From assembly GCA_017609795.1 (NCBI GenBank), contig JAFCDH010000010.1, positions 1-32,481 of the forward strand: 32,481 bases of DNA, in the 5' to 3' direction. The DNA comes from Candidatus Pacearchaeota archaeon. Lineage in GTDB: Archaea > Nanobdellota > Nanobdellia > Pacearchaeales > GW2011-AR1. The position numbers were made by a program, and so were the translations under genes. This document shows positions 386 to 29,491 of the stretch, in pieces. Position 1 is the stretch's first letter. Every line of letters begins with the position of its first letter. The notes under the pieces were generated by a model. It was not told the origin of the DNA. It saw nothing but the letters and a program-made list of their open reading frames with translations, and ran no database searches.

Positions 386-2143
386 TTAAACCCCTGCTTT
401 AGCTTTTATCTCACTCATAAAAGCATCTCCAATCTTTTGTTTATCACCATCAATTTTCCATTCAATTCCATCATCTGTATATTTTCCAGCAATATTAACA
501 TAAGCACCACAATCTCCAAGAGAATAGCAAATCTCATTCATTTTTTTAGCATAACTTTGTTCTAAACATTCGCAATTATCTTTACATTTTCTTTTTTCTA
601 ATAATCCTTTTTCATAAGTTACAACACAGACTGAATTTCCTAAAGAACAGATACTTGAAGCATCTCCTTCATCCCAGAATTTTAATCCAGCAGGAACATT
701 TGGAACACAAGCTCCTCCGCCAACCTGCACCCCAGAGCCTTTTTCTTCATCTTTATCATCCCCTCCACCAAAAAGCCCGCCTATAAACTCTCCTGTAATT
801 GGAGCTACTGCTTGTCCTGTAATTCCTCCCTGAAACCCTCCTGTACTTCCTCCACTAAAAACAGGATTAGAACCAGCTCCTGCTTCAGCACTTTCAGTTG
901 TTAATCCAGTAAAATGAGCTCCTTCTAACCAATAACAATCTCTTTTATCAGTATTTAAACAATCATCTTCTTCATCTTGGTCAATACAATCAGTCCATCT
1001 ATTAATTCTGCAAGCAGCTTCTATAAATCCTTCTCCAGCACCAGACTCAATAACTCCTTCATAACAAACTTCGTTTCTAAAATCAGCACAAGGTTCAATT
1101 GTTTCTTCACCTGCAATACAAACATGTCTAAAATGTCTGCTTCCTACTGCATCTGCTCCTTCACCAACATTTCCATCATAAATACACCAGCTTTCTCCAT
1201 TTTTATAATCATTTCCATCTTCAGTATTATAACAATTTAAATCAGTACAATAATAATTACCATAACTTGCACTACCTTTTGAACAAATACTTCCTTTAAA
1301 ATAATCACAATTTCCACAAGTTCTTGAACCAGCGTTTGCATTTTCAACACCATAACCACAACTTTCAGATTTATCAATTACTTTCTTCCAATAAGATTTA
1401 TCATTTATTTTAGAACCATCATAAATGTTAGCTTGATTCCCACAAGTATCTAAAAAATAAACTTCATCTTTTCCTTTAATACAAGCAGTCTTAGTAGAAG
1501 GCCCACAATTAGTTGCTAATTCTTCTGCAGAACATAAATAATCTTTAAAAAATTCAGTATCAGAAGTTTGTCCTTCTACTGTTTGTGATTTTAAACATTC
1601 TCCACGAGTTGTAAATCTACAAGTTCTTTGATAATCAATTTCATAAACACAAGCACCTTCATCTTGTGCAGCAGCAAGTGCAATACATGTTGTTTCATCT
1701 CCAACATCATTTCTAAAATTAGTTTCTAATCCAAATAAGCCAGATAATCTTTTGCATCTAGTTAATGTTACAAAACTTGCTTGAGTTCCTAAAACACAAC
1801 AACCAAGATTACATTGAGGAATATTACATTCTGCATCATCAATCCAAGTCCCATTTCCATCATTACAAACTTTCTGAGGAGTATTTTCCATGCACAATCC
1901 TTCTTGAGAATCATAACAACAACCAGATTTACAAAAACTAGTTGCATCACAAGAAGTTGGAGTTTTTCTAAAACCAGTATTACAATTTTCTTCTAATGTA
2001 TTTTGACACCAAGCACCAGATTGAGTTTTTTCACAACATGCATTTGCTGCAGGCCATGTTTGCTCTTGAGCAAACATAAGAGGAACAATAAGCAAATTAA
2101 ATACAATTATTATTCCTAAATATATTTTTGTTTTATTGACCAT
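386..2143 (-). CDS. Secreted cysteine-rich protein P1, paralog of the N-terminal ~500 aa of ORF 3874..7362 (family not recognised)
   Basis: 585-aa ORF with a signal-like N-terminus (IYLGIIIVFNLLIVPLMFA then QEQ) and about 45 Cys. Collinear similarity to the 1162-aa ORF, e.g. NGESWCIYDGNVGEGADAVGSRHFRHVCIAGEETIEPCADFRNEVC vs NGESWCEYDGTIGDGRDVVGSRHVKHLCFMGEERIEPCQDYRNQIC, and SLGDCGAYVNIAGKYTDDG vs SLGDCGGYVNIAGEYTDDG. Confidence 0.8.
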   Translation of the reverse strand: MVNKTKIYLGIIIVFNLLIVPLMFAQEQTWPAANACCEKTQSGAWCQNTLEENCNTGFRKTPTSCDATSFCKSGCCYDSQEGLCMENTPQKVCNDGNGTWIDDAECNIPQCNLGCCVLGTQASFVTLTRCKRLSGLFGLETNFRNDVGDETTCIALAAAQDEGACVYEIDYQRTCRFTTRGECLKSQTVEGQTSDTEFFKDYLCSAEELATNCGPSTKTACIKGKDEVYFLDTCGNQANIYDGSKINDKSYWKKVIDKSESCGYGVENANAGSRTCGNCDYFKGSICSKGSASYGNYYCTDLNCYNTEDGNDYKNGESWCIYDGNVGEGADAVGSRHFRHVCIAGEETIEPCADFRNEVCYEGVIESGAGEGFIEAACRINRWTDCIDQDEEDDCLNTDKRDCYWLEGAHFTGLTTESAEAGAGSNPVFSGGSTGGFQGGITGQAVAPITGEFIGGLFGGGDDKDEEKGSGVQVGGGACVPNVPAGLKFWDEGDASSICSLGNSVCVVTYEKGLLEKRKCKDNCECLEQSYAKKMNEICYSLGDCGAYVNIAGKYTDDGIEWKIDGDKQKIGDAFMSEIKAKAGV

Positions 2144-2973: not shown

Positions 2974-3063
2974 TTTTTCTATATCTCTATAATCTTAGAG
3001 CTTTGAAGATGACTTGTATAACTTAATCTTCTCAACATTCTCGTCCTATGCTTATCAGATTCC
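2974..3063 (-). repeat. Intergenic repeat copy E3 (mosaic)
   Basis: The proximal half tttttctatatctctataatcttagagctttgaagatgacttgtata equals the proximal half of copy 8139..8238 apart from a 1-nt indel. The distal half equals the distal half of copy 2213..2313. Confidence 0.8.
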
Positions 3064-3873: not shown

Positions 3874-6800
3874 TTAACTAATCAACGAATAACCTTTAAC
3901 TTTTCTTTTACCTCCTTTTTTTCCATATTCATCTTTACATTGGATAATATAAGTTCTTAATTGCCAATTTCCAATATGTTCAATTCCATCTCCACTCATA
4001 ATCTCTGCTTCATCCCAATTAAATTCATCAAATGAATATCTACATTCAGCTTGCTCATCTGTAATAACTTTCATACCACTATCATAATACATTCTTATAA
4101 TTCTAGGTCCTGTACTATCAATCCTTACTCTAAATAAAGTTGAAGTTTCAGCAGTATTTCCAGCAACATCTTCACATCTAATATCAACCTCATATCTTCC
4201 CCTTGTCATTCTATTAAATACTTGATTATGATAATTAGAATCTGTTTCATAAAATCCAATTTCTCCAACTCCAAAGTCATAATAACATTTTGCTTTTCCT
4301 TGTTCAGCACCACCAGAAGTTTTAACTTGTAATTCAACTGTCATAGGTTCAACACCAGAAAAAATCTCAGCATTATTAATTGGTCTAACTTCATCAATCA
4401 TAAGCTCAGAAGCAGATTTTTGCAAAGAGTAAGCATAACTTTCTGTCATTGTATTTTTATTATCAGAAATATCTTGACATTTAATATAAATATCACTATT
4501 CTCATCTAAGTTAGTAAGATTAGTTTCACAAGCCCATCCATATAATCCATAATCTTCTAAATCAGTTTTACAACTCATTTGATTTTCCATTAAATCATAC
4601 CCTCTATCTTCATTACTATATTTACAATTTGAAGGTTCATTAATCCAAATATCTAATTCTTGTTTAGTTTGATTATAACCTATATAACCATTATTTTCAG
4701 GTTCTGTTCTTGCAATTCTTGGAGCAGTTAAATCAGGACCTGGTTCAACACAAGTTCTTATTGTATAACTTGCTGCATTAATAGCTCCATTAATGCTTTT
4801 ACATTTTACATAAAAGTTAATTTCACCTAAAGCTTTTATTTGTTCATCAGTTAAATTATATTGATTTCTAAATGCTTCAGGACTTGGCATAAACATTAGG
4901 TTTGTATGATTTGCTAAATATAAATTACTTCCACCAAAATAATCTGTCATTTGATCATAAGTATGCAAAGGATCTTCACTTATTTTACATTGAGCAGGTT
5001 TATCTGTTTCAATTCCAAATTCAATAGGAGTAAATTCAGGAATACACCCAAGATTATCACTTTCAACTAATCTAAATCCATTTGCACTAATATCATAATA
5101 TTCATAACCTTTTGTCATTGTTCCAAACAAAGGACTTATCCTAGGACTGCTAACATCAGTAGGAGAATTATCAATACATAATTCTTGATCTGTTCCTTTA
5201 TTAATAAACTCACATGTTTGCCCTAAACTTTGACATCTATATTCTGTACATGGAGTTTCAAAAGGATCATTTGCATTACATTTATAACAATTATCCCCAC
5301 CTGTTGGAGCCTGCCATGGCATACATTTAAAATTTACAATTACTTTTTTTGATTTTCCTATTCCTAGGGCGAGCATTGTTATTGCTATTATGATTCCGAT
5401 TATACCTAGAGGTTTTAAAGCAGGAGTTCCCCAAATAGCTAGAGCAGCAACAACTACTCCTCCAGAAACAATCCATGCAGTTGAAGATTTTACTCCAAAC
5501 CCTGTACTTAAAAAATTTTGAACAGACCATATTGCGGCAGCAGTAGCTACTGCATTTCCAAATGCTGTTGTCGCTGTTTTAGTTCCTGTAGCCGCACCAG
5601 CCCCATGAGGTGCACCTGCAGCTGTGATTGCAGAAGAAGCACTTGTGCTAGTCCCAATACTAGGTCCAAGATTACCAATAATTTCTCCAACACCAGTACC
5701 TATATCACCAATAACAGGTAATCCTGCAAGAGTTTTATAAACACCAGACATTAAATCAATTCCTAAAGCTCCTAATCCTGCAACAGCCATTCCAGCAATT
5801 TTTAATTTACTTATTCCTCCACCCTCATATTCAGGATTTTCAGGACTTAACCAAGCTCCTCCACCTAAAAAACTAAGATTCCCAGGCTCAGCAGGGTCTT
5901 GTCCAGGATTATTACGAGCATATTTTCTATATTGTTCACCCCCTATTTTTCCAGCATCAGAACTATATCCATCATCAGTATATTCTCCTGCAATATTTAC
6001 ATAACCCCCACAATCTCCTAAAGAAGTACATAGCTCATTCATTTGTTGTGTAAATATAGATTTTTCACAATCACAATTAGCTACACAGTCCCATCCAACA
6101 AATTTTCTATGTGAAAATCTTTTAACATAAATCACAGTGCATGTTTGGCTTGCCATAGAACATGCCATTTCAGCATTTTTTCCACTTTCTTCACTAGACA
6201 GGTCAAATCCTGCAGGATATTTAGGAACACACATATCAAAATTAAATTTATCAATATTAACTCCTTTAATAATACAATCAGGATTTTCATCACACTCTTC
6301 TCTCATCTTTTCAGTGTTTTCTCTGGTATTATAATCTAAACAACTTCTCCAATTATTAACTCTGCAAGCAGCCTCTGAAAAACTTCCACCCTCATTTAAA
6401 TCAGTTTTAGATTCAACACAAATTTGATTTCTATAATCTTGGCAAGGTTCTATTCTTTCTTCACCCATAAAACAAAGATGTTTTACATGTCTGCTTCCAA
6501 CAACATCTCTTCCATCACCTATTGTTCCATCATATTCACACCAACTCTCTCCATTTCTTTTTCCAATGTCTTCACAATTCACACTTTTACAAGCAGGTTC
6601 TCCTGCAACTAAACCACAATAATTACCAATAAATAAACTACATTCTTCAGCAATATCTTCTTTATTTCCACAAGAATCAAACCAATAAACACTATCTTTT
6701 CCTTCAACACATTCTTTATGGTCTTTAGCAACACAATTAGTTTCTAAACTTTCATCAGAACAAAAAACATCTTTATAAAAATTCCCACCTCTGCCTCTGC

Positions 6801-7362
6801 ATTCTTCACTAGTTATAAACCTACATTCATCATCTAAAATACAAGCACCTTCATCATCTCTTTCAGCTAAAAATATACATTCTATCTCAGTATTAATTTC
6901 AGGCCTAAAATCAGTTTCCAAACCTAAAAATCCTGATTCAACTTCACAATTTCTTTCAGATGTAAAAAAAGCATCATTTCCTAAAACACAACAACCTCTT
7001 GAACATTGGGCAATATTACAAACCTCATTATCAAACCATTGTCCATTACAACTTCTTTTAGGAGTTTTTTCATCACATAATCCTGTTCCTGAACTATAAC
7101 AACAACCTAATTTGCAAAAACTTGTTTCTTCACACATAGTAGGAGCAGATTGAGCTTCTTGTTTACATTCTTCATCTGCAACAAACTGACAAGAACTTCC
7201 ATCATTTGTTTCTTCACAACAAGAATATCCTGGAAGTGTTTGCGCACTAACACTTCCTGTTGCAGAATATACTAAATAACAAAATGCAAAAGTAGATATT
7301 ATTAATATTAAAATCTGAAAATAACTCATCTGCGCTTTTTTACTAAAATATTTTTTTATCAT
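3874..7362 (-). CDS. Giant cysteine-rich surface protein P2 (N-terminal P1-like domain, Gly/Ala-rich hydrophobic segment, C-terminal beta-rich repeats)
   Basis: 1162-aa ORF with a signal-like N-terminus. Residues ~45-500 are paralogous to P1. Residues ~505-680 are Gly/Ala-rich with several hydrophobic helices (e.g. WIVSGGVVVAALAIWGTPALKPLGIIGIIIAITMLALGIG). The C-terminal ~480 aa carry 3-4 repeats of an Ig-like-looking unit, each with a conserved Cys (AQCKIS, SNCKYS, AKCYYD, AECRYS). Confidence 0.85.
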   Translation of the reverse strand: MIKKYFSKKAQMSYFQILILIISTFAFCYLVYSATGSVSAQTLPGYSCCEETNDGSSCQFVADEECKQEAQSAPTMCEETSFCKLGCCYSSGTGLCDEKTPKRSCNGQWFDNEVCNIAQCSRGCCVLGNDAFFTSERNCEVESGFLGLETDFRPEINTEIECIFLAERDDEGACILDDECRFITSEECRGRGGNFYKDVFCSDESLETNCVAKDHKECVEGKDSVYWFDSCGNKEDIAEECSLFIGNYCGLVAGEPACKSVNCEDIGKRNGESWCEYDGTIGDGRDVVGSRHVKHLCFMGEERIEPCQDYRNQICVESKTDLNEGGSFSEAACRVNNWRSCLDYNTRENTEKMREECDENPDCIIKGVNIDKFNFDMCVPKYPAGFDLSSEESGKNAEMACSMASQTCTVIYVKRFSHRKFVGWDCVANCDCEKSIFTQQMNELCTSLGDCGGYVNIAGEYTDDGYSSDAGKIGGEQYRKYARNNPGQDPAEPGNLSFLGGGAWLSPENPEYEGGGISKLKIAGMAVAGLGALGIDLMSGVYKTLAGLPVIGDIGTGVGEIIGNLGPSIGTSTSASSAITAAGAPHGAGAATGTKTATTAFGNAVATAAAIWSVQNFLSTGFGVKSSTAWIVSGGVVVAALAIWGTPALKPLGIIGIIIAITMLALGIGKSKKVIVNFKCMPWQAPTGGDNCYKCNANDPFETPCTEYRCQSLGQTCEFINKGTDQELCIDNSPTDVSSPRISPLFGTMTKGYEYYDISANGFRLVESDNLGCIPEFTPIEFGIETDKPAQCKISEDPLHTYDQMTDYFGGSNLYLANHTNLMFMPSPEAFRNQYNLTDEQIKALGEINFYVKCKSINGAINAASYTIRTCVEPGPDLTAPRIARTEPENNGYIGYNQTKQELDIWINEPSNCKYSNEDRGYDLMENQMSCKTDLEDYGLYGWACETNLTNLDENSDIYIKCQDISDNKNTMTESYAYSLQKSASELMIDEVRPINNAEIFSGVEPMTVELQVKTSGGAEQGKAKCYYDFGVGEIGFYETDSNYHNQVFNRMTRGRYEVDIRCEDVAGNTAETSTLFRVRIDSTGPRIIRMYYDSGMKVITDEQAECRYSFDEFNWDEAEIMSGDGIEHIGNWQLRTYIIQCKDEYGKKGGKRKVKGYSLIS

Positions 7363-8138: not shown

Positions 8139-8238
8139 TTTTTCTATATCTCTATGAATCTTAGAGCTTTGAAGATGACTTGTATAGCTTAAACTCAGTA
8201 GAACATCTCGTCCTACGCTTATAAGATATTGATATTAT
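8139..8238 (-). repeat. Intergenic repeat copy E5
   Basis: tttttctatatctctatgaatcttagagctttgaagatgacttgtatagcttaaactcagtagaacatctcgtcctacgcttataagatattgatatt. Positions 8186-8236 match 19205-19255 at 49 of 51 positions. Confidence 0.8.
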
Positions 8239-11127: not shown

Positions 11128-13599
11128 ATGGAATTTAAAGAAAAAAGAATTAGAGAAATAACTTTTATTTATTATTCTAGGATAGATGTCAGAAAAGCAA
11201 TTTTCAAGTTTTCAAAAAATAGAGAATGTATCCCAAGATATTATGAGGATTTTGGCAAGCGCCCAGATAATTTTCAATATCCTACAGATATTTTAGAGCA
11301 AGTTAAAAAAGGAGCAACATCTTTTCATTGTTCAGAAGAATTATGGAAAGATTCATTAGAAATTTCAAATGAATTATCAGAGCAAGAATTTAATGAACTA
11401 AGAGCAGGTTGGGATTTGCTTTTAGATGTAGATTCCCCTTATTTAGAATATAGCAAAATATACACTCAACTTTTAATAGATATTTTAAAGTTTCATGGAA
11501 TTGAAAATGTAGGAGTAAAATTCAGTGTATCCGGAGATACAGATATTTTAGTTAAACTAGGAAATCAAATAAAACTTGTTAGGATTAATCAAGTGGTAGA
11601 ATTACTAAAAAAAGAGATTAAATTAGAGGTTTTATCTTTAAATAAAAATCAAAAACTTCAATTCTCAAAAATTTATAATTATTTAGAACATGAAGATATA
11701 ATCTATGATATCTTTCATTCTCAAAGTAAAATTCCATTAAAAGTAACAGGTTATCATTCAGTTTTTGTTTGGAAAAATGGAGAAATTATTCAAAAAAAAG
11801 TTTCTGAGATAAATAAAGGAGATTTTCTTATTTCATTCAATACACAAAAAAATCCAATAAGAAAGGACATTAAAGAGATAACAAATAAATTCGAATTTTC
11901 AAAAAATCAGTTTTCTAAAAAAATAGTAGAAAATAAAATACAAGTAACATTAGATTTAATGAGATTAATAGGTTATTTTTTAGCAGAAGGACATACCACA
12001 AAAATAATAAACCAAACAGGATTTACATTTCATAAAAATGAAAGAGAATATATTGATGATGTGGTAAATTTATTAAAAACTATAACTAAAAGAAAAATTT
12101 CAATAAGACACCCAAATCCAAATTCCACACAAATATTAATCCATTCAAAAGAATGGTATAATTTTTTCAAAAATAATTGTGGAGAAAAAAAGAATAAACA
12201 TGTACCTCAATTTGCATGGACTTCCTCTAGAGAATTATTTTTAGAGATGTTAAAAGGATACATAAGAGGAGATGGATACAAAGTAGGAGAATATAGCATT
12301 ATTGTTAAATCTGTTTCAAAGAGATTAATAAAAGAATTCGTTTGGTTATGCAAATTAAATAATATTTCTTGTTCCTTGTCTTCAGAAAAAAATAAACCAC
12401 ATATAATGCCTCAAGGGAATATCTTTCCAGGAAGTTTTGTTTATATTTTAAAAATCCCAAAATCTGAATTATCTTCTTTGGAATTTAATAGAGATAGAAA
12501 TAAATTCTCACCTTGTCCTGGGGATAAAATTTTTCCAATAGACGGGCTTAAAGTAGTTTATAAAAACATAAAACCAAAGATGTTTAATTATCATAGACCT
12601 GAGCAAATGACCTTGAATAAAAAAAGAGCAAATTTAAAAAGAATAAGAAAAGTTTTAGAATGGTTTGAAAAATTTAAATCAGTGGATTATGATGAGGAAT
12701 CTAAAAAAATCATTTCCAATTACTGGAAATTATTTAATTCTGATATAAATGTTGTAGAAATAAATAATATAATAAAAAAAGACAAACAAAAAGTTTATGA
12801 TATTTCTGTTGAAGAAACAGAATCTTTTTTTGGAAATGATTATCCTATATTGTTACATAATTCAGGCTCAAAAGGTTTTCATGTCATCATCCCTTGGACA
12901 GCATTTCCAAAAGAAATTTATGGACAAAAAACAAAAGATATGTTTCCAAAATGGCCAAGAGCAATTTGTGAATATCTTTCTGAAACAATAAGACCTAAAT
13001 TATCTGAAAAAATTTTTGAACAAGAAAGTTTAAAAGAAGTAGCAAAAAAAACAGGAAAAAAACAAGAAGAATTACTAATAACTGAATGTTTAATATGTAA
13101 TAGACCTGCTGTAAAAAAAGAACTTGTAACTTGGTTATGCCCTTCTTGTAAAAATCAACTAATAATGATAAAAAAAAATAAAAAAATACCCAAGTGTCCA
13201 AATGATAATTGCAGAAAAGAGATGATTTCAACTTTTTCTAAAGAAATCTTTTTTTGTGATTATTGTAATATTAGTTCTGATAAAAATCCTGAGAAGTTTG
13301 AAAAAACAAGAGAAAAAACAGAGGTTTTAATAGAAGCAGATTTAATTTTAGTTGCTCCAAGACATTTATTTAGAATGCCTTATAGTCTTCATGAAAAAAC
13401 AGCTTTGTCCTCAATAGTTATAGATAAAAATAAAATTAAGGATTTTCAAATAACAGATGCTAAACCATTTAAAATAGATATAAAAGAGTTTTACCCTAAT
13501 GCAAAGCCAGAAGAAGCAAGAGAACTTTTATTGCAAGCCTTAGATTGGAAAGAGCAAAAACAAAGACAAGAACAGAAGAAATTTTTCCTCCATGTGTAA
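11128..13599 (+). CDS. priS: DNA primase catalytic subunit PriS, interrupted by an intein
   Basis: N-extein carries WDLLLDVDS (DxD). After removal of residues 133-578 the junction reads GVKF-SGSKGFHVIIP, the conserved FSGxxGFH primase motif. Zn-ribbon-like CLICN...CPSC and CPNDNC...CDYC follow in the C-extein. Confidence 0.85.
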   Translation: MEFKEKRIREITFIYYSRIDVRKAIFKFSKNRECIPRYYEDFGKRPDNFQYPTDILEQVKKGATSFHCSEELWKDSLEISNELSEQEFNELRAGWDLLLDVDSPYLEYSKIYTQLLIDILKFHGIENVGVKFSVSGDTDILVKLGNQIKLVRINQVVELLKKEIKLEVLSLNKNQKLQFSKIYNYLEHEDIIYDIFHSQSKIPLKVTGYHSVFVWKNGEIIQKKVSEINKGDFLISFNTQKNPIRKDIKEITNKFEFSKNQFSKKIVENKIQVTLDLMRLIGYFLAEGHTTKIINQTGFTFHKNEREYIDDVVNLLKTITKRKISIRHPNPNSTQILIHSKEWYNFFKNNCGEKKNKHVPQFAWTSSRELFLEMLKGYIRGDGYKVGEYSIIVKSVSKRLIKEFVWLCKLNNISCSLSSEKNKPHIMPQGNIFPGSFVYILKIPKSELSSLEFNRDRNKFSPCPGDKIFPIDGLKVVYKNIKPKMFNYHRPEQMTLNKKRANLKRIRKVLEWFEKFKSVDYDEESKKIISNYWKLFNSDINVVEINNIIKKDKQKVYDISVEETESFFGNDYPILLHNSGSKGFHVIIPWTAFPKEIYGQKTKDMFPKWPRAICEYLSETIRPKLSEKIFEQESLKEVAKKTGKKQEELLITECLICNRPAVKKELVTWLCPSCKNQLIMIKKNKKIPKCPNDNCRKEMISTFSKEIFFCDYCNISSDKNPEKFEKTREKTEVLIEADLILVAPRHLFRMPYSLHEKTALSSIVIDKNKIKDFQITDAKPFKIDIKEFYPNAKPEEARELLLQALDWKEQKQRQEQKKFFLHV
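11524..12861 (+). mobile_element. Intein with LAGLIDADG homing-endonuclease domain inside priS
   Basis: 446 aa. Starts SVSGDTDILV (block A, Ser1), has VTGYHSVFV (TxxH block B) and two LAGLIDADG motifs (LIGYFLAEGHT, LKGYIRGDGY). Ends VYDISVEETESFFGNDYPILLHN followed by +1 Ser. Confidence 0.8.
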
Positions 13600-13922
13600 A
13601 ATTAATTTTAAAAGGAGTAAAACAAGATGGAAGAAAAAGAGCTTTATTTATTCTTATAAATTTCTTTAAATCATTAGGATTAGATAATCAAGAACTTGAA
13701 AATAGGATTAATCAATGGAATGAAAAAAACTACAAACCTTTAAAACAAGGATATATTCGTTCTCAGCTTCACTGGCATAATCAACATCAAGCAAGACTTC
13801 CACCTAATTGTGATAAGCCTCATTATAAAGATTTAGCAATCTGCAAACCAGATGCACTTTGCAGACAAATAAAAAATCCTGTTAATTATGCTGTTAAAAG
13901 GTATTTCTCAAGTATGAAGTAA
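13545..13922 (+). CDS. PriL C-terminal-domain-like Fe-S module (primase large-subunit CTD), in a different frame from priS
   Basis: FPPCVKLILKG...GRKRALFILINFF...PPNCDK...AICKPDALCRQIKNPVNY gives four Cys in the PriL-CTD 4Fe-4S pattern. The ORF opens at 13500, the first start is TTG 13545, and it overlaps the priS end by 55 nt. Confidence 0.65.
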   Translation: MERAKTKTRTEEIFPPCVKLILKGVKQDGRKRALFILINFFKSLGLDNQELENRINQWNEKNYKPLKQGYIRSQLHWHNQHQARLPPNCDKPHYKDLAICKPDALCRQIKNPVNYAVKRYFSSMK

Positions 13923-13930
13923 AATCTATT

Positions 13931-14105
13931 CTAATATTTATATTTTATAAAATATTATGAGATGGAGATGATGAGTGTTTTAAGTTAAGTAATAAAAATA
14001 GAATAAGAACTCAAAGCAGGAGTGGAGATTAAGAGATACAATCTTATTTTAAGCTAAACAAATCATCTTCAAAACATAAACATACTTTAAGATTTAAAAA
14101 TTCAA
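13931..14105 (+). repeat. Intergenic repeat copy (sense on plus strand), extended or duplicated
   Basis: ctaatatttatattttataaaatattatgagatggagatgatgag...ggagattaagagatacaatcttattttaagctaaacaaatcatcttcaaaac...ctttaagatttaaaaattc. Same modules as the minus-strand copies, oriented with the downstream sigma-like gene. Confidence 0.6.
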
Positions 14106-14146
14106 ATCAACAAAATTTATTTAAAACCTCTTTTGATTAATAGATT

Positions 14147-14836
14147 ATGGAAAAATCTAGTGAATATTCAATTCCATGCCCATTAGCTCAAAGACATGAA
14201 AATGCAGAAAGAATAAGAAAAGCTATGGCCAATAATCTAAATAATGGTAGATATCTTTATCAAATACTTTTTAGAAGAGCTAGTAAAATAATAAATACAT
14301 CTGATCGTGAAGAGATTGTTTGTAAATTTTTTTTAAATATGGTAACACAAAGACTAGAAACATTCAAATATTTTGTAGATGATAGAAAAAAAATAATTGA
14401 GAATCCTAGATTTATGGCATGGGCTTCTAAAGATATTAGAAATCTATGTGTAGACTATTTAAGAGATAAATATCGCACAAATCAAGCAGAAAATTTTACT
14501 GATTTTGAGATAAGAAAATATGGTAGAAGAAAAAGAAATGAACCTACAGACTCTCCTTTTAAAGATTCATTAGTTCAAAATACTTTTCAACAACCAGAAC
14601 AAAGATTAGCAAACTTAGAAGCAAGACAAGAATTAGGAAAAGCTCTTAAAAAACTTGATAAAAAATATAGAGATGTAATATTAAGATATTATTTTAAAGG
14701 ATTAAAATATGAAGAAATTAGAAAAACATTAAATCTTCCTCTTGGAACTGTAAGAAGCAGATTAAATAAAGCTAAAAAAAATTTAAAAAACCTTCTTTTA
14801 AAAGATGGAGAAATGATAATTAATATGAAGAATTAA
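14147..14836 (+). CDS. Sigma-70 family (ECF-like) protein with regions 2 and 4
   Basis: RFMAWASKDIRNLCVDYLRDKYR is region-2-like. LDKKYRDVILRYYFKGLKYEEIRKTLNLPLGTVRSRLNKAKKNLKNLL is a textbook region 4 HTH. Confidence 0.65.
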   Translation: MEKSSEYSIPCPLAQRHENAERIRKAMANNLNNGRYLYQILFRRASKIINTSDREEIVCKFFLNMVTQRLETFKYFVDDRKKIIENPRFMAWASKDIRNLCVDYLRDKYRTNQAENFTDFEIRKYGRRKRNEPTDSPFKDSLVQNTFQQPEQRLANLEARQELGKALKKLDKKYRDVILRYYFKGLKYEEIRKTLNLPLGTVRSRLNKAKKNLKNLLLKDGEMIINMKN

Positions 14837-14881
14837 CCAACCATCCCCAAAATTTAAATACCTCTCTTCTTTCATATTTCT

Positions 14882-16765
14882 ATGAAAAGAGAGATGCTTG
14901 AAGGAGGGTTACGGAAGGGAAACTTGGTTCCCTTGCTATCACTTATATTAGTATTTAGTTTATTAATCATTCCTGTATTTGCACAAGATGGAGAAAATGG
15001 GGATGAAGATATAGGTAAAGGAGTTTCTGAAGATGAAATTGATAAAGCATATTCTTGTTTAAAATCTCAATTAAGTGAAAATTGTGGAGATACAAAATCA
15101 ACAGAACAAACAGCTTTAAGTTTGCTTGCAATAGCTTATGATTCTGGAAAACAATCTGATTGTAAAACTTCTCTTAATAGTAAAAAATCAGGAAGTTGTT
15201 GGGGAACAACTTCTTCAGCAAACTGTGATTTAAAATCAACTTCTTTAGCAGTTCTTGCCCTAGATAATATTAATTCAGCTCCTAATGATGCTATTGAATG
15301 GATATTAAGCAAAGAAAAACTATCTCCAGATTTAGATTGGTTTTTAGAAATTGATGCAGATGAAGCAACTTCTTGTGATATACAAGTTAATGAAGGAAGT
15401 GCAAAAACATTCCAAATGAATGAAGATAAAAAAATGTCTGGAAGCACTACTTGTTTATCTCCTGCAGAATCAAATTATTATTTAAAAATATCTGATTCTT
15501 GTCTTGATGATGAGTTTAAAATAAGCTGTGATAAAGATTTTAAAACAACTTTAATTTATAAAAAATCAGGAAGTAGTGTTTATTATATTTCAAGTCAGAC
15601 TCATTCTTCTTCTTCAGGCGGAACCACTAATGAACAAGTAAATGCATATTGTTTTGCAAAATCAAGTAGTTGTGATTATGAAGGAAGTTTATGGGCTTCT
15701 TTAGCTTTAGCAAGAACAGGAGAAGAAATCTCTCCTTATATTCCATATCTTACTTCAATGTCTGATGAAAACAAAGAATATCTTCCATCAGCTTTCTTAT
15801 ATATGTTAACTAATGAAGATGATTATTATTCTGATTTAACTAATCAGCAAAAACAAGGAAAATATTGGGAAGAAACAGGTAAAAAATTCTATGACACATC
15901 AATAGCACTTTTAGCATTACAAAATGTAAATATTGAAGAAGTAACAAATACTAAAGATTATTTATTAGAAATTCAAGATAATTCTGGATGTTGGAATTCA
16001 AATAATATAAGAGATACAGCATTTGTTTTATATTCTGCATGGCCTAAATCTCCTGTAATATCTGGAGATGGAAGATCAGATTGTGAAAGCTTTAATCATT
16101 ATTGTGTTTCATCAGGAGAATGTTTAACAGAAGACACTTTAGATGATTTTTATTGTTTACATTTAAGCGATGTTTGTTGTAAAACAAGACCTGCAGAACA
16201 AACATGTGCTGAAAAACAAGGAATTATTTGTTCTTCAACTCAAGAGTGTAGTGGAGCAGATTCTATAGCTTCAGATACTAATTATTGTTGTCTTGCTTCT
16301 TGTATTGAAATTAAAAAAAACGAATGTGAAAACCAAGGATATTCTTGTAAAACCTCTTGTTCATCTGATGAAGTAGAAAAAACAGGGTATAACTGTGATT
16401 ATGTTGGAGATGTTTGTTGTGATAAAGAAGAAGGAGGTTGGGGAATAATTATCCTTCTTATAATTTTAATAATTCTTGTAATTTTAGCAATTATATTTAG
16501 AAATCAATTAAAAATCTGGTGGTTTAGAATCAAAAGCAAATTAAGATTTGGAAAAGGGCCTTCAGAATCTTTACAACCACCTATGCCTCCAATGGGAGGA
16601 GTTCCTCAATTACAAAGACCAATGCCAAGACATATTATACCAAGAAGACCTACTCATCGCCCTAGAAGAGCTTTATCAAGAAGACCTCTTAAAACTCCAA
16701 AAACTCCAAAAGCTCCAGATGCTTTTGAAGATACAATGGATAAGTTAAGGAAGATGAGTAAGTGA
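14882..16765 (+). CDS. Membrane-anchored surface protein: alpha/alpha-toroid (prenyltransferase/terpene-cyclase-like) repeats, three Cys-rich modules, TM helix, Pro/Arg-rich tail
   Basis: Signal peptide (LLSLILVFSLLIIPVFAQD). Repeats TEQTALSLLAIAY, LKSTSLAVLAL, YEGSLWASLALA, YDTSIALLALQ and EIQDNSGCWNSNNIRDTAFVLYSAW. Three C-x6-7-C-x3-5-C-x11-18-CC modules. TM helix WGIIILLIILIILVILAIIF. Only 45 nt after the sigma-like gene. Confidence 0.8.
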   Translation: MKREMLEGGLRKGNLVPLLSLILVFSLLIIPVFAQDGENGDEDIGKGVSEDEIDKAYSCLKSQLSENCGDTKSTEQTALSLLAIAYDSGKQSDCKTSLNSKKSGSCWGTTSSANCDLKSTSLAVLALDNINSAPNDAIEWILSKEKLSPDLDWFLEIDADEATSCDIQVNEGSAKTFQMNEDKKMSGSTTCLSPAESNYYLKISDSCLDDEFKISCDKDFKTTLIYKKSGSSVYYISSQTHSSSSGGTTNEQVNAYCFAKSSSCDYEGSLWASLALARTGEEISPYIPYLTSMSDENKEYLPSAFLYMLTNEDDYYSDLTNQQKQGKYWEETGKKFYDTSIALLALQNVNIEEVTNTKDYLLEIQDNSGCWNSNNIRDTAFVLYSAWPKSPVISGDGRSDCESFNHYCVSSGECLTEDTLDDFYCLHLSDVCCKTRPAEQTCAEKQGIICSSTQECSGADSIASDTNYCCLASCIEIKKNECENQGYSCKTSCSSDEVEKTGYNCDYVGDVCCDKEEGGWGIIILLIILIILVILAIIFRNQLKIWWFRIKSKLRFGKGPSESLQPPMPPMGGVPQLQRPMPRHIIPRRPTHRPRRALSRRPLKTPKTPKAPDAFEDTMDKLRKMSK

Positions 16766-16961: not shown

Positions 16962-17957
16962 ATGAAAAAAGAGATAATAGCATTAGTATTAATCATATTC
17001 TTAATACCAACAATCTTAGCAATAGATGTATCTTTATCAAAAACAAGTTACCAACCACAAGAAACATTACAAGCAGAAATAACAGGAAATTTTATTTCTT
17101 TAACTAATGAAAATATTTTAATCTATAAAGGAGAGGCAGTACATTCAACACCAACAATCTCTGATTTAACTAAACAAGGAAATATTTATTATTTTTATGC
17201 AGTTCTTCCTAATCAAGAAGGGAATTTTAGTTTAAAGATTGAAAATTCCCAATATACACAAGCAGGACAAACTAAAACAGATACAATAACTAAGGATTTT
17301 AAAATTAAAAGAACAAATGAATCTGCTTTATCTATAAACCAAGGATTTGTTATTACTAGTGAAGATTTTTCAATTAAAGTAAAAAGTTTAAATAATAATC
17401 AAGAAATTTCAGCAATATTAGAATCAACAAAAGAAATACACAATACCACCTTAATAGAAGATTCTGAAAAAATTTTTAGTTTTTCAGTTTTAGCAGAAGA
17501 AACAATAAAAACTAATCTTAAAATTAATAATTATAATATTCCTGTTTTTATTATAGAAAAAACACAACCTATTATAAATAAAACAAATAAATCAGAAATA
17601 AATCAATCTGAACCTAAAATTGATATAGAAAATAAAACAAAAGAAGAAATAGCAGCATTAAACTGTGTTGACATTGGTGAAAAATGTGAAGACAATGAAA
17701 AATGTGAAGGAGAGATTGTTTCAAGTTTAGATGGTTCTTGTTGTGTAGGAGATTGTATAGAAAAAAAACAAAAAAGCTATGCATGGATTATAGGAGTTAT
17801 AATTTTGATTATTCTTGCCACAACAATCTGGTTTTTTTATTCAAGAGCAAGAAAAAGACAAGCACCTAAATCTACAGAAGATATTTTAAGAGAAAAATCT
17901 GAAGATTTTGATGAGCGAATGAGTGGAGAAGTTAGTGGGAGTTTAGGAAGGAGTTGA
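16962..17957 (+). CDS. Membrane-anchored surface protein with one Cys-rich juxtamembrane module
   Basis: Signal peptide (IIALVLIIFLIPTILA), beta-rich ectodomain, CVDIGEKCEDNEKCEGEIVSSLDGSCCVGDC, then TM helix YAWIIGVIILIILATTIWFFY and a charged tail. Confidence 0.75.
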   Translation: MKKEIIALVLIIFLIPTILAIDVSLSKTSYQPQETLQAEITGNFISLTNENILIYKGEAVHSTPTISDLTKQGNIYYFYAVLPNQEGNFSLKIENSQYTQAGQTKTDTITKDFKIKRTNESALSINQGFVITSEDFSIKVKSLNNNQEISAILESTKEIHNTTLIEDSEKIFSFSVLAEETIKTNLKINNYNIPVFIIEKTQPIINKTNKSEINQSEPKIDIENKTKEEIAALNCVDIGEKCEDNEKCEGEIVSSLDGSCCVGDCIEKKQKSYAWIIGVIILIILATTIWFFYSRARKRQAPKSTEDILREKSEDFDERMSGEVSGSLGRS

Positions 17958-28540: not shown

Positions 28541-28792
28541 TTACCCTCTGGCCTTTCTCCACTTCTTTAGGAAAATACTAAACCCAATAATTTTATAAGT
28601 AAATTTATCTCCTAAAAAATTATTAATTTCTTTAGCATATTTTTTAACATCTTCTTTACTTTCTCTTGCACTCTGCAGAACATGGATTTTAATAGTTTTA
28701 TTTTGATATTTTTCAAATCTTTTCTTTAAATTCTCTAAAAATTCAGGAGTAAGTCCTTTTTTTCCTAATTGTGTTTCTGATTGAGATGTCAT
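28541..28792 (-). CDS. CRS1/YhbY-type RNA-binding protein
   Basis: 83 aa. LGKKGLTPEFLENLKKRFEKYQNKTIKIHVL...KIIGFSIFL fits the iGK.Glt....i...l.....vKv.vl...iG pattern of YhbY domains. Confidence 0.55.
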   Translation of the reverse strand: MTSQSETQLGKKGLTPEFLENLKKRFEKYQNKTIKIHVLQSARESKEDVKKYAKEINNFLGDKFTYKIIGFSIFLKKWRKARG

Positions 28793-28906
28793 GAGTTTAT
28801 TAAGAATCTTTCTTATTTAAGATTATGTTTTCTTTTAATCTTTATAAATAAAAAGTTCACAAAAGCTTAAAAACACTATTTTTCTTAGAATTTCATATAA
28901 TTTAAA

Positions 28907-29491
28907 ATGAAAAAACAAAATCCTGCAAAAGACTATAGGAATTATCGATGGTTTTTTACATCAAATAAAATTTTAGTAGTTGGTGGTAAATCAGATAATC
29001 AAAATGAAGCAGTTATAAGAAATTTTTTAAAATTAAATTATACACTTATGCATACCTCCCTTCCAGGTAGCCCATTTATGATAATTCAATCTCATAATCC
29101 TACTAAAAAAGATTTAGAAGAGACTGCGATATTTACTGCTTGTTTTTCTCATCAATGGAAACTTGGAGAAAAGAAAATAGAAATTGATATTTTTAAAGGA
29201 ACTGATATTTACAAAACTAAATCAATGAAAGTTGGAACCTTTGGTGTTAAAGCTAAGAAAAAAACGATGAAAGTAAAACCAGAACTTGCTTTAATTATTC
29301 AAAAAGGAAAATTAAGAGCTGTTCCTGTAACAACTAAAGAAAAGATTCTTGCAATTATTAAACAAGGAAAATTAACAAAAGAACAAGTTGCAGATAAAAT
29401 TACTAAAAAAATCAAGGATAAATTTCATTTCCCTATTTCAAAACAAGAAGTTATGCAAGCAATTCCGAGTGATAAGTTGAGTGTTAAATGA
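28907..29491 (+). CDS. NFACT-R/DUF814 domain RNA-binding protein
   Basis: RWFFTSNKILVVGGKSDNQNEAVIRNFLKLNYTLMHTSLPGSPFMIIQS matches the DUF814 core (..ilvGrn..qNe.l....d.w.Ha...GS..vi). Confidence 0.6.
   Translation: MKKQNPAKDYRNYRWFFTSNKILVVGGKSDNQNEAVIRNFLKLNYTLMHTSLPGSPFMIIQSHNPTKKDLEETAIFTACFSHQWKLGEKKIEIDIFKGTDIYKTKSMKVGTFGVKAKKKTMKVKPELALIIQKGKLRAVPVTTKEKILAIIKQGKLTKEQVADKITKKIKDKFHFPISKQEVMQAIPSDKLSVK

Follow-up and report, generated by a model that had tools for sequence, protein, structure and literature searches.

Textbooks present sigma factors as a hallmark of transcription in bacteria; archaea start theirs with TBP, TFB and TFE. What, then, might an intact sigma factor gene do in the genome of an archaeon? 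The question is raised by contig JAFCDH010000010.1 of assembly GCA_017609795.1 (Candidatus Pacearchaeota archaeon), whose positions 1 to 32,481 make up the stretch of DNA analysed here, called the window hereafter. The gene, denoted sigma below, codes for a protein of the extracytoplasmic function (ECF) type of the sigma-70 family. In our reading, to which we assign a probability of about 0.6, it belongs to a fast-evolving native subfamily, has been relocated in this lineage, and encodes a dispensable, DNA-binding transcription regulator rather than a subunit of a canonical holoenzyme.

The sigma gene and its archaeal setting

An earlier, sequence-only reading of the window had reported a region 4 helix-turn-helix (HTH) and a region-2-like segment in this open reading frame (ORF). 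Both quoted peptides are present in the translation, and profile searches amply support region 4. The ORF matches Pfam Sigma70_r4_2 (PF08281; E=3.9e-13, 49.3 bits, cut-off 25.7) and Sigma70_r4 (PF04545; E=1e-9, 38.2 bits, cut-off 24.1), as well as the NCBIfam model TIGR02937 (sigma70-ECF; 68.6 bits, cut-off 42.9), which spans residues 87–216 and also backs region 2. Taken alone, region 2 of this single sequence gives a sub-threshold match (PF04542, E=0.036, 14.3 bits versus a cut-off of 24) limited to profile positions 48–70. At the family level its homology is secure, because the Pfam matches of the relatives, the profile matches and the structural model agree. Thus, Sigma70_r2 is matched by 17 of the 28 aligned full-length relatives (best 2.4e-10) and region 4 by all 28, while a profile made from the family alignment matches SigW, AlgU, SigH, RpoE and SigL over sigma2 and sigma4, with E values down to 2e-24 and alignments to SigW and SigH that start at profile position 37–39. 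An AlphaFold2 model built on the same alignment has a mean predicted local distance difference test (pLDDT) score of 84.7, with both domains above 90, sigma2 as four helices at pLDDT >90, and a disordered linker at residues 126–146. Foldseek searches with this model returned sigma factors exclusively, ECF ones on top, and the modelled sigma4 domain superposes on the solved sigma4 domains 2h27 and 3hug with root-mean-square deviations of 0.8–1.9 Å. No Pfam match to region 1 (sigma1.1) or region 3 (sigma3) was found at E<=1. Judged by its sequence and predicted fold, the ORF is a complete two-domain group IV (ECF) sigma factor. Its N-terminal region is ~11 residues longer than the bacterial median, and the linker between sigma2 and sigma4 has a median length of 37 residues in the subfamily versus 32 in bacteria.

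The gene was also said to lie among archaeal genes (PCNA, PriS, Hjc and eL31), to share their AT-rich composition and to be no obvious contaminant or recent transfer, and our analyses agree on each count. The window encodes PCNA, PriS with an intein and fused to a PriL-like C-terminal domain, Hjc, AsxRS, eL31, eS19, YhbY and NFACT-R_1, together with a form-III-type RuBisCO large subunit. The GC content of the sigma gene (0.254) and that of its third codon positions (0.087) are like those of its neighbours. Related loci were collected with conserved neighbours as anchors, namely the C-terminal domain of the primase and NFACT-R_1. A second contig, from a JGI metagenome (L001), is 99.8–99.9% identical to the window and has sigma in the same setting, evidence against a chimeric assembly. 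The primase-anchored scan of species-representative genomes identified metagenome-assembled genomes (MAGs) of Candidatus Pacearchaeota as the closest, with gene order kept over ~10 kb. Upstream of sigma lies an archaeal-type box with the TFB recognition element (BRE) and TATA-like features, AAAATTTATTTAAAA, whose position implies a short or absent leader. The motif TTTAWAW starts between -40 and -24 of 11 of the 31 window genes, with 2–4 expected and a sharp peak at -29 to which the two surface-protein genes downstream of sigma, surf627 and surf331, belong. A scan of viral contigs gave one weak, generic ECF match and no viral relatives of sigma, and therefore no sign of an origin from a virus or mobile element. 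Scans of the window against Rfam and for tRNAs were negative.

Contamination, chimerism and recent transfer of the sigma gene can thus be set aside, given the second contig, the matching composition, the TATA box and the synteny with Pacearchaeota. That the gene might be an assembly artefact or a contaminating bacterial fragment has in its favour only the bacterial affinity of the protein family. Two independent contigs agree and dozens of homologous archaeal loci carry the family, so that we give this explanation practically no weight.

The subfamily, its genomic slot and its residues

In an exhaustive phmmer search, about 35 cluster representatives matched the sigma query end to end at 25–43% identity, whereas thousands of ordinary ECF sigma factors matched it only from about residue 87 onward. 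On sequence grounds, the window protein is a member of a divergent archaeal subfamily resident in DPANN of the Pacearchaeota type. One member (P0270) is annotated by NCBI as ‘sigma-70 family RNA polymerase sigma factor [Candidatus Pacearchaeota archaeon]’. Variants include tandem paralogues in locus L065 (1697–2314 and 2503–3114), a duplicated sigma4 domain in P0022 (L002, 8001–8900) and an extra N-terminal domain of ~170 residues in P0026 and P0034; inspection of the latter three proteins gave no functional clue. Another candidate, P0013, was rejected as an unrelated transposase HTH array.

The usual place of the gene is next to that of NFACT-R_1. The diverged members P0022, P0154, P0008 and P0006 are all found in the order NFACT-R_1 > sigma > (variable) > YhbY > eS19 > eL31, and the order NFACT-R_1 > sigma > YhbY occurs in loci L002/3, L007, L022/3 and L024/5. 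The NFACT-R_1-anchored metagenome search yielded 80 loci, 66 of them with enough downstream sequence to judge. Sigma directly follows NFACT-R_1 in 30 of these and lies one gene further in 2, while 25 have YhbY without sigma, 6 are window-like and 3 are arranged otherwise. About 45% of the related loci, roughly half, carry the gene; after merging identical NFACT-R_1 proteins, 27 loci with sigma stand against 24 without. The genes in this slot are tightly packed: the gap upstream of sigma has a median of 40 nt and the downstream one 34 nt, and some genes overlap. The slot is kept across lineages whose NFACT-R_1 proteins are only 60% identical. Outside the window, sigma neighbours are NFACT-R_1, YhbY, a GDSL lipase or FeThRed_B, and the member P0010 is found in yet another genomic context. 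No conserved neighbours other than NFACT-R_1 and YhbY emerged across our context look-ups.

Mapped on the NFACT-R_1 tree, the presence of sigma is patchy, and close relatives differ (L026/L028, L047/L050, L068/L058 and L088/L103). The first of these pairs has flanks of 95.6% and 89.6% identity on either side of a clean difference, 710 nt with sigma in L026 versus 86 nt without it in L028, and neither direct repeats nor gene remnants were found at the junction. Thus, sigma is gained or lost cleanly between near-identical genomes.

The window itself has an empty canonical slot, a short spacer between YhbY and NFACT-R_1, and NFACT-R_1 is inverted relative to the YhbY-eS19-eL31 cluster (28541–29491). 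A rough tree made by neighbour joining places the window sigma among the NFACT-adjacent sigmas, and it therefore looks like a relocated orthologue of the slot gene. The sequence-only reading had looked to a phylogeny for the donor clade. This tree is star-like and does not resolve the donor; two nominally bacterial sequences fall among the archaeal sigmas. The closest relative, P0005 (42% identical, its three contigs being identical to one another), also adjoins surf627. The surf627 promoter box is kept in relatives with and without sigma, and it follows that sigma was inserted between the primase stop codon and a surf627 promoter that was already there, in the ancestor shared by the window and P0005 lineages. 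In six metagenome loci (L029, L030, L035, L037, L043 and L079), viewed on the downstream side, the next genes after NFACT-R_1 are, as in the window, HIT and/or RuBisCO, encoded on the opposite strand, and the rearrangement that emptied the slot may be common to a clade.

Sigma evolves much faster than its surroundings. NFACT-R_1 proteins are 64–80% identical between lineages whose sigmas are only 28–36% identical, and between the window and P0005 lineages the identities are 42% for sigma, 84% for the adjacent primase segment and 52% for the N-terminus of surf627. Selection was estimated on other members of the subfamily, as the ratio of nonsynonymous to synonymous substitution rates (dN/dS) between the window and P0005 is saturated and the P0005 contigs are identical. 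For three moderately diverged locus pairs, the Nei-Gojobori method gave dN/dS values of 0.51–0.72 for sigma, 0.16–0.26 for NFACT-R_1 and 0.06–0.45 for YhbY. Within sigma, very small samples gave 0.36–0.85 for the folded domains and 0.64–2.7 for the linker. The gene is constrained and not a pseudogene, but the constraint is weak.

To see which functional residues the subfamily has kept, 51 non-redundant archaeal members were compared with 104 ECF sigma factors among the bacterial-type matches (P0155–P0267). The landmark was E. coli RpoE, in the form of a sequence that matches the residues given by Fang et al. at six positions. In the subfamily, conservation of the sigma4 recognition helix IPxGTVKSRL is 78–92%, and the sigma4 positions aligned to the residues of RpoE that contact the beta flap-tip helix stay hydrophobic. 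E158 (96%) and Y182 (72%) are conserved positions specific to the subfamily. In the bacterial set, region 2.2 reads AEDLvQE.F, with Q in 92% and an acidic next residue in 92%; this Gln-Glu dyad presumably forms part of the surface that contacts the beta' coiled-coil. Among the archaeal members, Q drops to 31% (S 29%) and the acidic residue to 38%, and the window protein has C59-K60.

In reported structures of ECF holoenzymes, a conserved polar surface of sigma2 contacts the beta' coiled-coil, or clamp helices, and the specificity loop reads a flipped -10 base (PMC6411747; PMC6648896). In SigH, W81 stacks on the flipped base and N88 reads the -10 element (PMC6411747). The corresponding W92 and N99 are conserved in 92% and 84% of the archaeal set, as much as in bacteria. 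Right before the specificity loop, 41 of the 51 archaeal members have an 11-residue insertion with a [YF]x[YF] motif, found in none of the 104 bacterial ECF sigma factors. All members with the strict N-terminal CPL motif have this insertion as well, and the AlphaFold2 model has single beta-bridge residues at about residues 10 and 75; for these reasons, the motif and the insertion probably pack together beside the -10 pocket. Taken together, the sequence comparisons suggest that the subfamily has kept its DNA-binding determinants, lost one canonical polymerase contact and remodelled its pocket for single-stranded DNA. No ECF-type -35/-10 promoter was recognised upstream of sigma, the cognate motif itself being undefined.

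The adjacent surface-protein gene and other features of the window

The gene 45 nt downstream of the sigma stop codon, on the same strand, is surf627, which codes for a Cys-rich surface protein with the topology that the sequence-only reading had described. Hydropathy alone predicts a signal or anchor segment at residues 12–34, an ectodomain with 30 Cys, a transmembrane segment at 516–540 and a tail rich in Pro, Arg and Lys inside the cell. Its position had been taken to mirror the layout, though not the sequence, of a bacterial ECF sigma/anti-sigma pair, in which case the Pro/Arg-rich tail would sequester sigma. The layout does resemble that of class I anti-sigma factors such as RseA, RsiW and RslA, as surf627 crosses the membrane once and its gene comes right after that of an ECF-type sigma factor, and the adjacency is common to the closest sigma relative, P0005. 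However, five relatives (L010, L011, L012, L013 and L015) have the order PCNA - primase - surf627 - surf331 - h170 - LTD - Hjc - AsxRS with no sigma before surf627, the gap between primase and surf627 being 34–256 nt in the four that were measured (L010–L013). The promoter box of surf627, CAAATTTAAATACC, is kept in these five sigma-less relatives, the P0005 lineage and the window, and sigma is located away from surf627 in at least 27 lineages, next to other genes. In the Pfam searches, surf627 had no match to an anti-sigma domain at E<=1, with just weak matches to Flp1_like (on the transmembrane segment) and SQHop_cyclase_C, and surf331 had no anti-sigma match either; a sequence search of the PDB with surf627 found no solved relative. 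Unlike class I anti-sigma factors, surf627 has no zf-HC2/RsrA-like N-terminal cytoplasmic domain, and its topology is opposite to their N-in arrangement, its large Cys-rich domain lying outside the cell and its disordered Pro/Arg tail in the cytoplasm.

The end of the tail carries a motif, F[ED][DE]TMxKL[RK]xMSK (16720–16762 in the window), that may be a docking peptide for a cytoplasmic partner, and sigma could be imagined in that role. Nevertheless, all seven homologues have the motif, both with and without a neighbouring sigma. Before it comes FRNQLKIW, a conserved juxtamembrane segment. Between the window and L001, the tail region 16652–16699 shows a net length difference of 45 nt inside a low-complexity Pro/Arg-rich spacer, so that the tail length is polymorphic within the population, another point against a sequestering role. 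A relationship in trans is conceivable, as the relatives that lack sigma beside surf627 may have it next to NFACT-R_1, but nothing supports one. Since the usual slot is elsewhere and the surface-protein block is older than the arrival of sigma, the neighbourhood of the two genes is incidental and lineage-specific. Obligatory co-transcription is unlikely too, because sigma, surf627 and surf331 each have a predicted TATA box of their own at -27 or -29. Altogether, a signalling pair of sigma and surf627 appears very improbable, and the anti-sigma analogy does not hold up.

A 26-nt box, TAAGCTATACAAGTCATCTTCAAAGC, is found three times in the window, with 0.00 occurrences expected: at 3000–3025 (-), 8166–8191 (-) and 14050–14075 (+). 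Each copy lies upstream of a gene and is co-oriented with it, namely an MNT nucleotidyltransferase gene (of an MNT/HepT pair), an NYN-domain gene and sigma. The region upstream of sigma is unusually long (224 nt), and ~100 nt of it are a diverged copy of the module found directly before the MNT and NYN genes, which contains an ATCTT...AAGAT inverted repeat along with the box. The box may represent a shared operator or a duplicated promoter. A search of 650 kb of related loci did not find it; it is therefore organism-specific and not tied to the sigma family by conservation. The coordinates of these features and of the sigma domains are collected in Table 1.

Table 1. Positions of the sigma gene, its domains and the surrounding features in the window
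Feature	Positions	Strand	Remark
ECF-type sigma-70-family gene, 229 aa, ATG start	14147..14836	+	divergent DPANN/Pacearchaeota subfamily
N-terminal region, aa 1-35	14147..14251	+	subfamily motif CPL..R.ENA..(L/I); predicted helix aa 13-32
sigma2 domain, aa 36-112	14252..14482	+	region 2.2 = EEIVCKFFLNM; region 2.3/2.4 = W92...N99...D103..R106
subfamily-specific 11-aa insertion, aa 72-82, TFKYFVDDRKK, [YF]x[YF] motif	14360..14392	+	adjoins -10 specificity loop
sigma2-sigma4 linker, aa 113-149	14483..14593	+	pLDDT <50 at aa 126-146; without sigma3
sigma4 domain, aa 150-218, recognition helix LPLGTVRSRLNKAKKNL	14594..14800	+	Pfam and structure match
archaeal BRE/TATA-like box AAAATTTATTTAAAA (TTTAWAW at -27)	14112..14126	+	upstream of sigma gene
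26-nt element TAAGCTAAACAAATCATCTTCAAAAC, third copy, putative operator	14050..14075	+	repeat upstream of sigma gene
surf627, Cys-rich type-I surface protein, 627 aa, 87-aa cytoplasmic tail	14882..16765	+	gene adjacent to sigma
TATA-like promoter box of surf627, AAAATTTAAATACC, TTTAAAT at -29	14849..14862	+	kept in sigma-less relatives
surf331, second surface protein of conserved primase-surf627-surf331 block	16962..17957	+	synteny
empty canonical sigma slot, 114-nt spacer	28793..28906	.	between divergent YhbY 28541-28792 (-) and NFACT-R_1 28907-29491 (+)

Several observations concern other parts of the window. Relative to L001, 88 nt are missing at 13572/13573 in the primase gene (11128–13922), which splits the fused PriS-PriL-like primase, 960 residues long in L001 and continuous in L004, into ORFs of 823 and 125 residues; the split reflects a frameshift at strain level or else an error in assembly. 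The LAGLIDADG intein of PriS (11128–13599, at about residues 143–578) is also found in L009, L012 and L015 and is absent in L008, L010, L011 and L013. It is thus polymorphic among close Pacearchaeota. Two large ORFs, 3874–7362 (-) of 1162 residues and 386–2143 (-) of 585 residues, have no Pfam match at E<=0.001. Finally, the closest genome record, L008 (JAUUWR010000041.1), has 87% primase identity and archaeal gene content and synteny, yet it is titled ‘MAG: bacterium isolate CSMAG_44’. Its domain label is probably wrong.

Explanations of function and known systems

Our best guess is that sigma acts as a dispensable DNA-binding regulator on a sigma scaffold. The gene, placed between the primase and an older pair of surface-protein genes, would be driven by its own predicted archaeal TATA promoter. 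The HTH of sigma4 would bind specific DNA sequences, possibly with the help of sigma2, and the protein would act like the sigma4-related HTH regulators of archaea (LuxR/GerE/Tfx/Bat type) in a cell that has archaeal RNA polymerase alone. We favour a role outside a holoenzyme because the polar dyad of region 2.2 has decayed and the -10 specificity loop carries the 11-residue insertion. The main rival is that sigma serves archaeal RNA polymerase as an initiation or specificity factor, an alternative or competitor to the general factors, with sigma2 docked on a universally conserved element of Rpo1, its clamp coiled-coil, which is also the site of TFE/Spt5, and with sigma4 on promoter-proximal DNA. 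The sigma2-linker-sigma4 arrangement has remained intact in >50 diverged lineages and has not been cut down to an HTH; W92, N99, D103, R106 and the hydrophobic sigma4 surface match the bacterial level of conservation; and the altered region 2.2, the conserved insertion and the CPL motif could have arisen as the protein adapted to dock on a new surface. The usual slot, amid NFACT-R_1, YhbY, eS19 and eL31, fits as well, as archaeal transcription factor genes are often located in such gene-expression neighbourhoods. Yet a gene that is dispensable, patchy between near-identical genomes and weakly constrained does not resemble that of a general factor, and the genes adjoining sigma use ordinary TATA boxes. 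We consider this explanation unlikely. We also doubt its more specific form, a domesticated sigma factor whose remodelled sigma2, with its lost Q/E dyad and its CPL-YxY module, would sit on the Rpo1 clamp coiled-coil or on TFB/TFE while sigma4 reads an upstream element, possibly the 26-nt box.

Frequent loss, high dN/dS relative to the neighbours, the decay of the region 2.2 dyad and a cell without a partner polymerase are what one might expect of a functionless relic of an old bacterial transfer that drifts toward loss. Such a relic is less likely than a sigma factor re-fitted to the archaeal polymerase, and doubtful in itself, because the gene has its own well-placed TATA box, the ORF is intact in the window and in >30 further loci across dozens of lineages, and the subfamily motifs (CPL, YxY, E158 and Y182) arose after the split from bacterial ECF sigma factors. 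In addition, dN/dS is below 1 in the folded domains of all three pairs, the AlphaFold2 model is confident, and the slot is kept over large distances. Fast evolution and patchiness also resemble those of genes in conflict, and the architecture is that of a working sigma factor, so that one might picture a protein that targets, in the manner of phage sigmas, the RNA polymerase of a bacterial partner or prey outside the cell, its evolution driven by an arms race. This is hardly credible for a protein that has neither signal peptide nor secretion context, has a decayed dyad for the beta' coiled-coil and has no viral relatives in our searches; moreover, the hosts of DPANN reported in the excerpts of Castelle et al. 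2021 (PMC8204110) are archaea.

Several points nevertheless weigh against the regulator that we favour. Its role is inferred, with a DNA target and a partner that are both putative. The preservation of W92 and N99 as in bacteria and the hydrophobic flap face of sigma4 indicate that some function related to RNA polymerase or to binding single-stranded DNA could persist, although these positions may equally be structural. The dN/dS values of 0.5–0.7 together with the frequent loss are compatible with a gene drifting toward loss; they come from only three locus pairs of AT-rich DNA and the Nei-Gojobori method, and the tree is a rough neighbour-joining one. The 104 sequences of the comparison set were taken as bacterial by match type, not sequence by sequence, and the role of the region 2.2 dyad is taken from classical sigma70 genetics.

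That DPANN archaea maintain an intact ECF sigma subfamily by vertical descent prompts the question of whether the sigma scaffold can be re-used without a polymerase, or re-fitted to another one. The present analysis makes the question tractable: it defines the subfamily with its kept and lost residues, shows the gene to be optional and fast-evolving, and removes surf627 as a misleading partner. The sigma protein, the 26-nt box and the natural presence/absence pairs of near-identical genomes are offered as test objects. If sigma is only a repurposed HTH regulator, it represents a neat but modest exaptation after inter-domain transfer; if it is a domesticated sigma factor, some DPANN archaea have an optional, sigma-like layer of promoter selection.

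The presence of sigma factors in DPANN is known already, and the window gene is a further case. According to the excerpts of Castelle et al. 2021 (PMC8204110), sigma-70 genes (fam00359) occur in DPANN, especially Woesearchaeota, on contigs with archaeal markers; mis-binning was ruled out, and anti-sigma factors were not found. The sequence-only reading had noted that sigma-like ORFs had been remarked on in such genomes, and these excerpts bear it out. The window gene is alike: its product is of the sigma-70 type, its DPANN contig carries archaeal markers, and no anti-sigma factor was identified. What is given here, unlike in those excerpts, is the genomic slot, the presence/absence dynamics, the rate analysis and the residue comparison; in the literature searched, part of it as excerpts, we did not find the slot, the dynamics, the rate contrast, the lost dyad or the insertion. 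Two large ECF classification papers make no mention of archaea, and in a review on transcription in archaea sigma figures as exclusively bacterial (PMC7289017).

Among known systems, TFB and TFE bind the clamp and dock of RNA polymerase and promoter DNA (PMC7289017), a role that any sigma factor would share or compete for. Unlike these universal, essential factors, sigma is dispensable and patchy, and no relationship in sequence or fold was detected. The closest likeness in architecture is to bacterial ECF sigma factors, SigW of B. subtilis (5WUQ), RpoE of E. coli (1OR7/6JBQ), and SigH (5ZX2) and SigL (6DV9) of M. tuberculosis, which also consist of sigma2, linker and sigma4 without sigma1.1 or sigma3 and share the motifs AED..., W...N...D..R and IPxGTVKSRL with the window protein. 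In contrast with them, the window gene is found in an archaeon without bacterial-type RNA polymerase, has an archaeal TATA promoter and no anti-sigma neighbour, and its product has C59/K60 in place of Q/E, the 11-residue aromatic insertion and the N-terminal CPL motif. By analogy with Tfx, Bat and the ‘LuxR solos’ (PMC5413776), its sigma4-like HTH is proposed to be a DNA-binding module that operates beside archaeal RNA polymerase. Those regulators have no sigma2, whereas the window protein keeps the full sigma2-linker-sigma4 arrangement.

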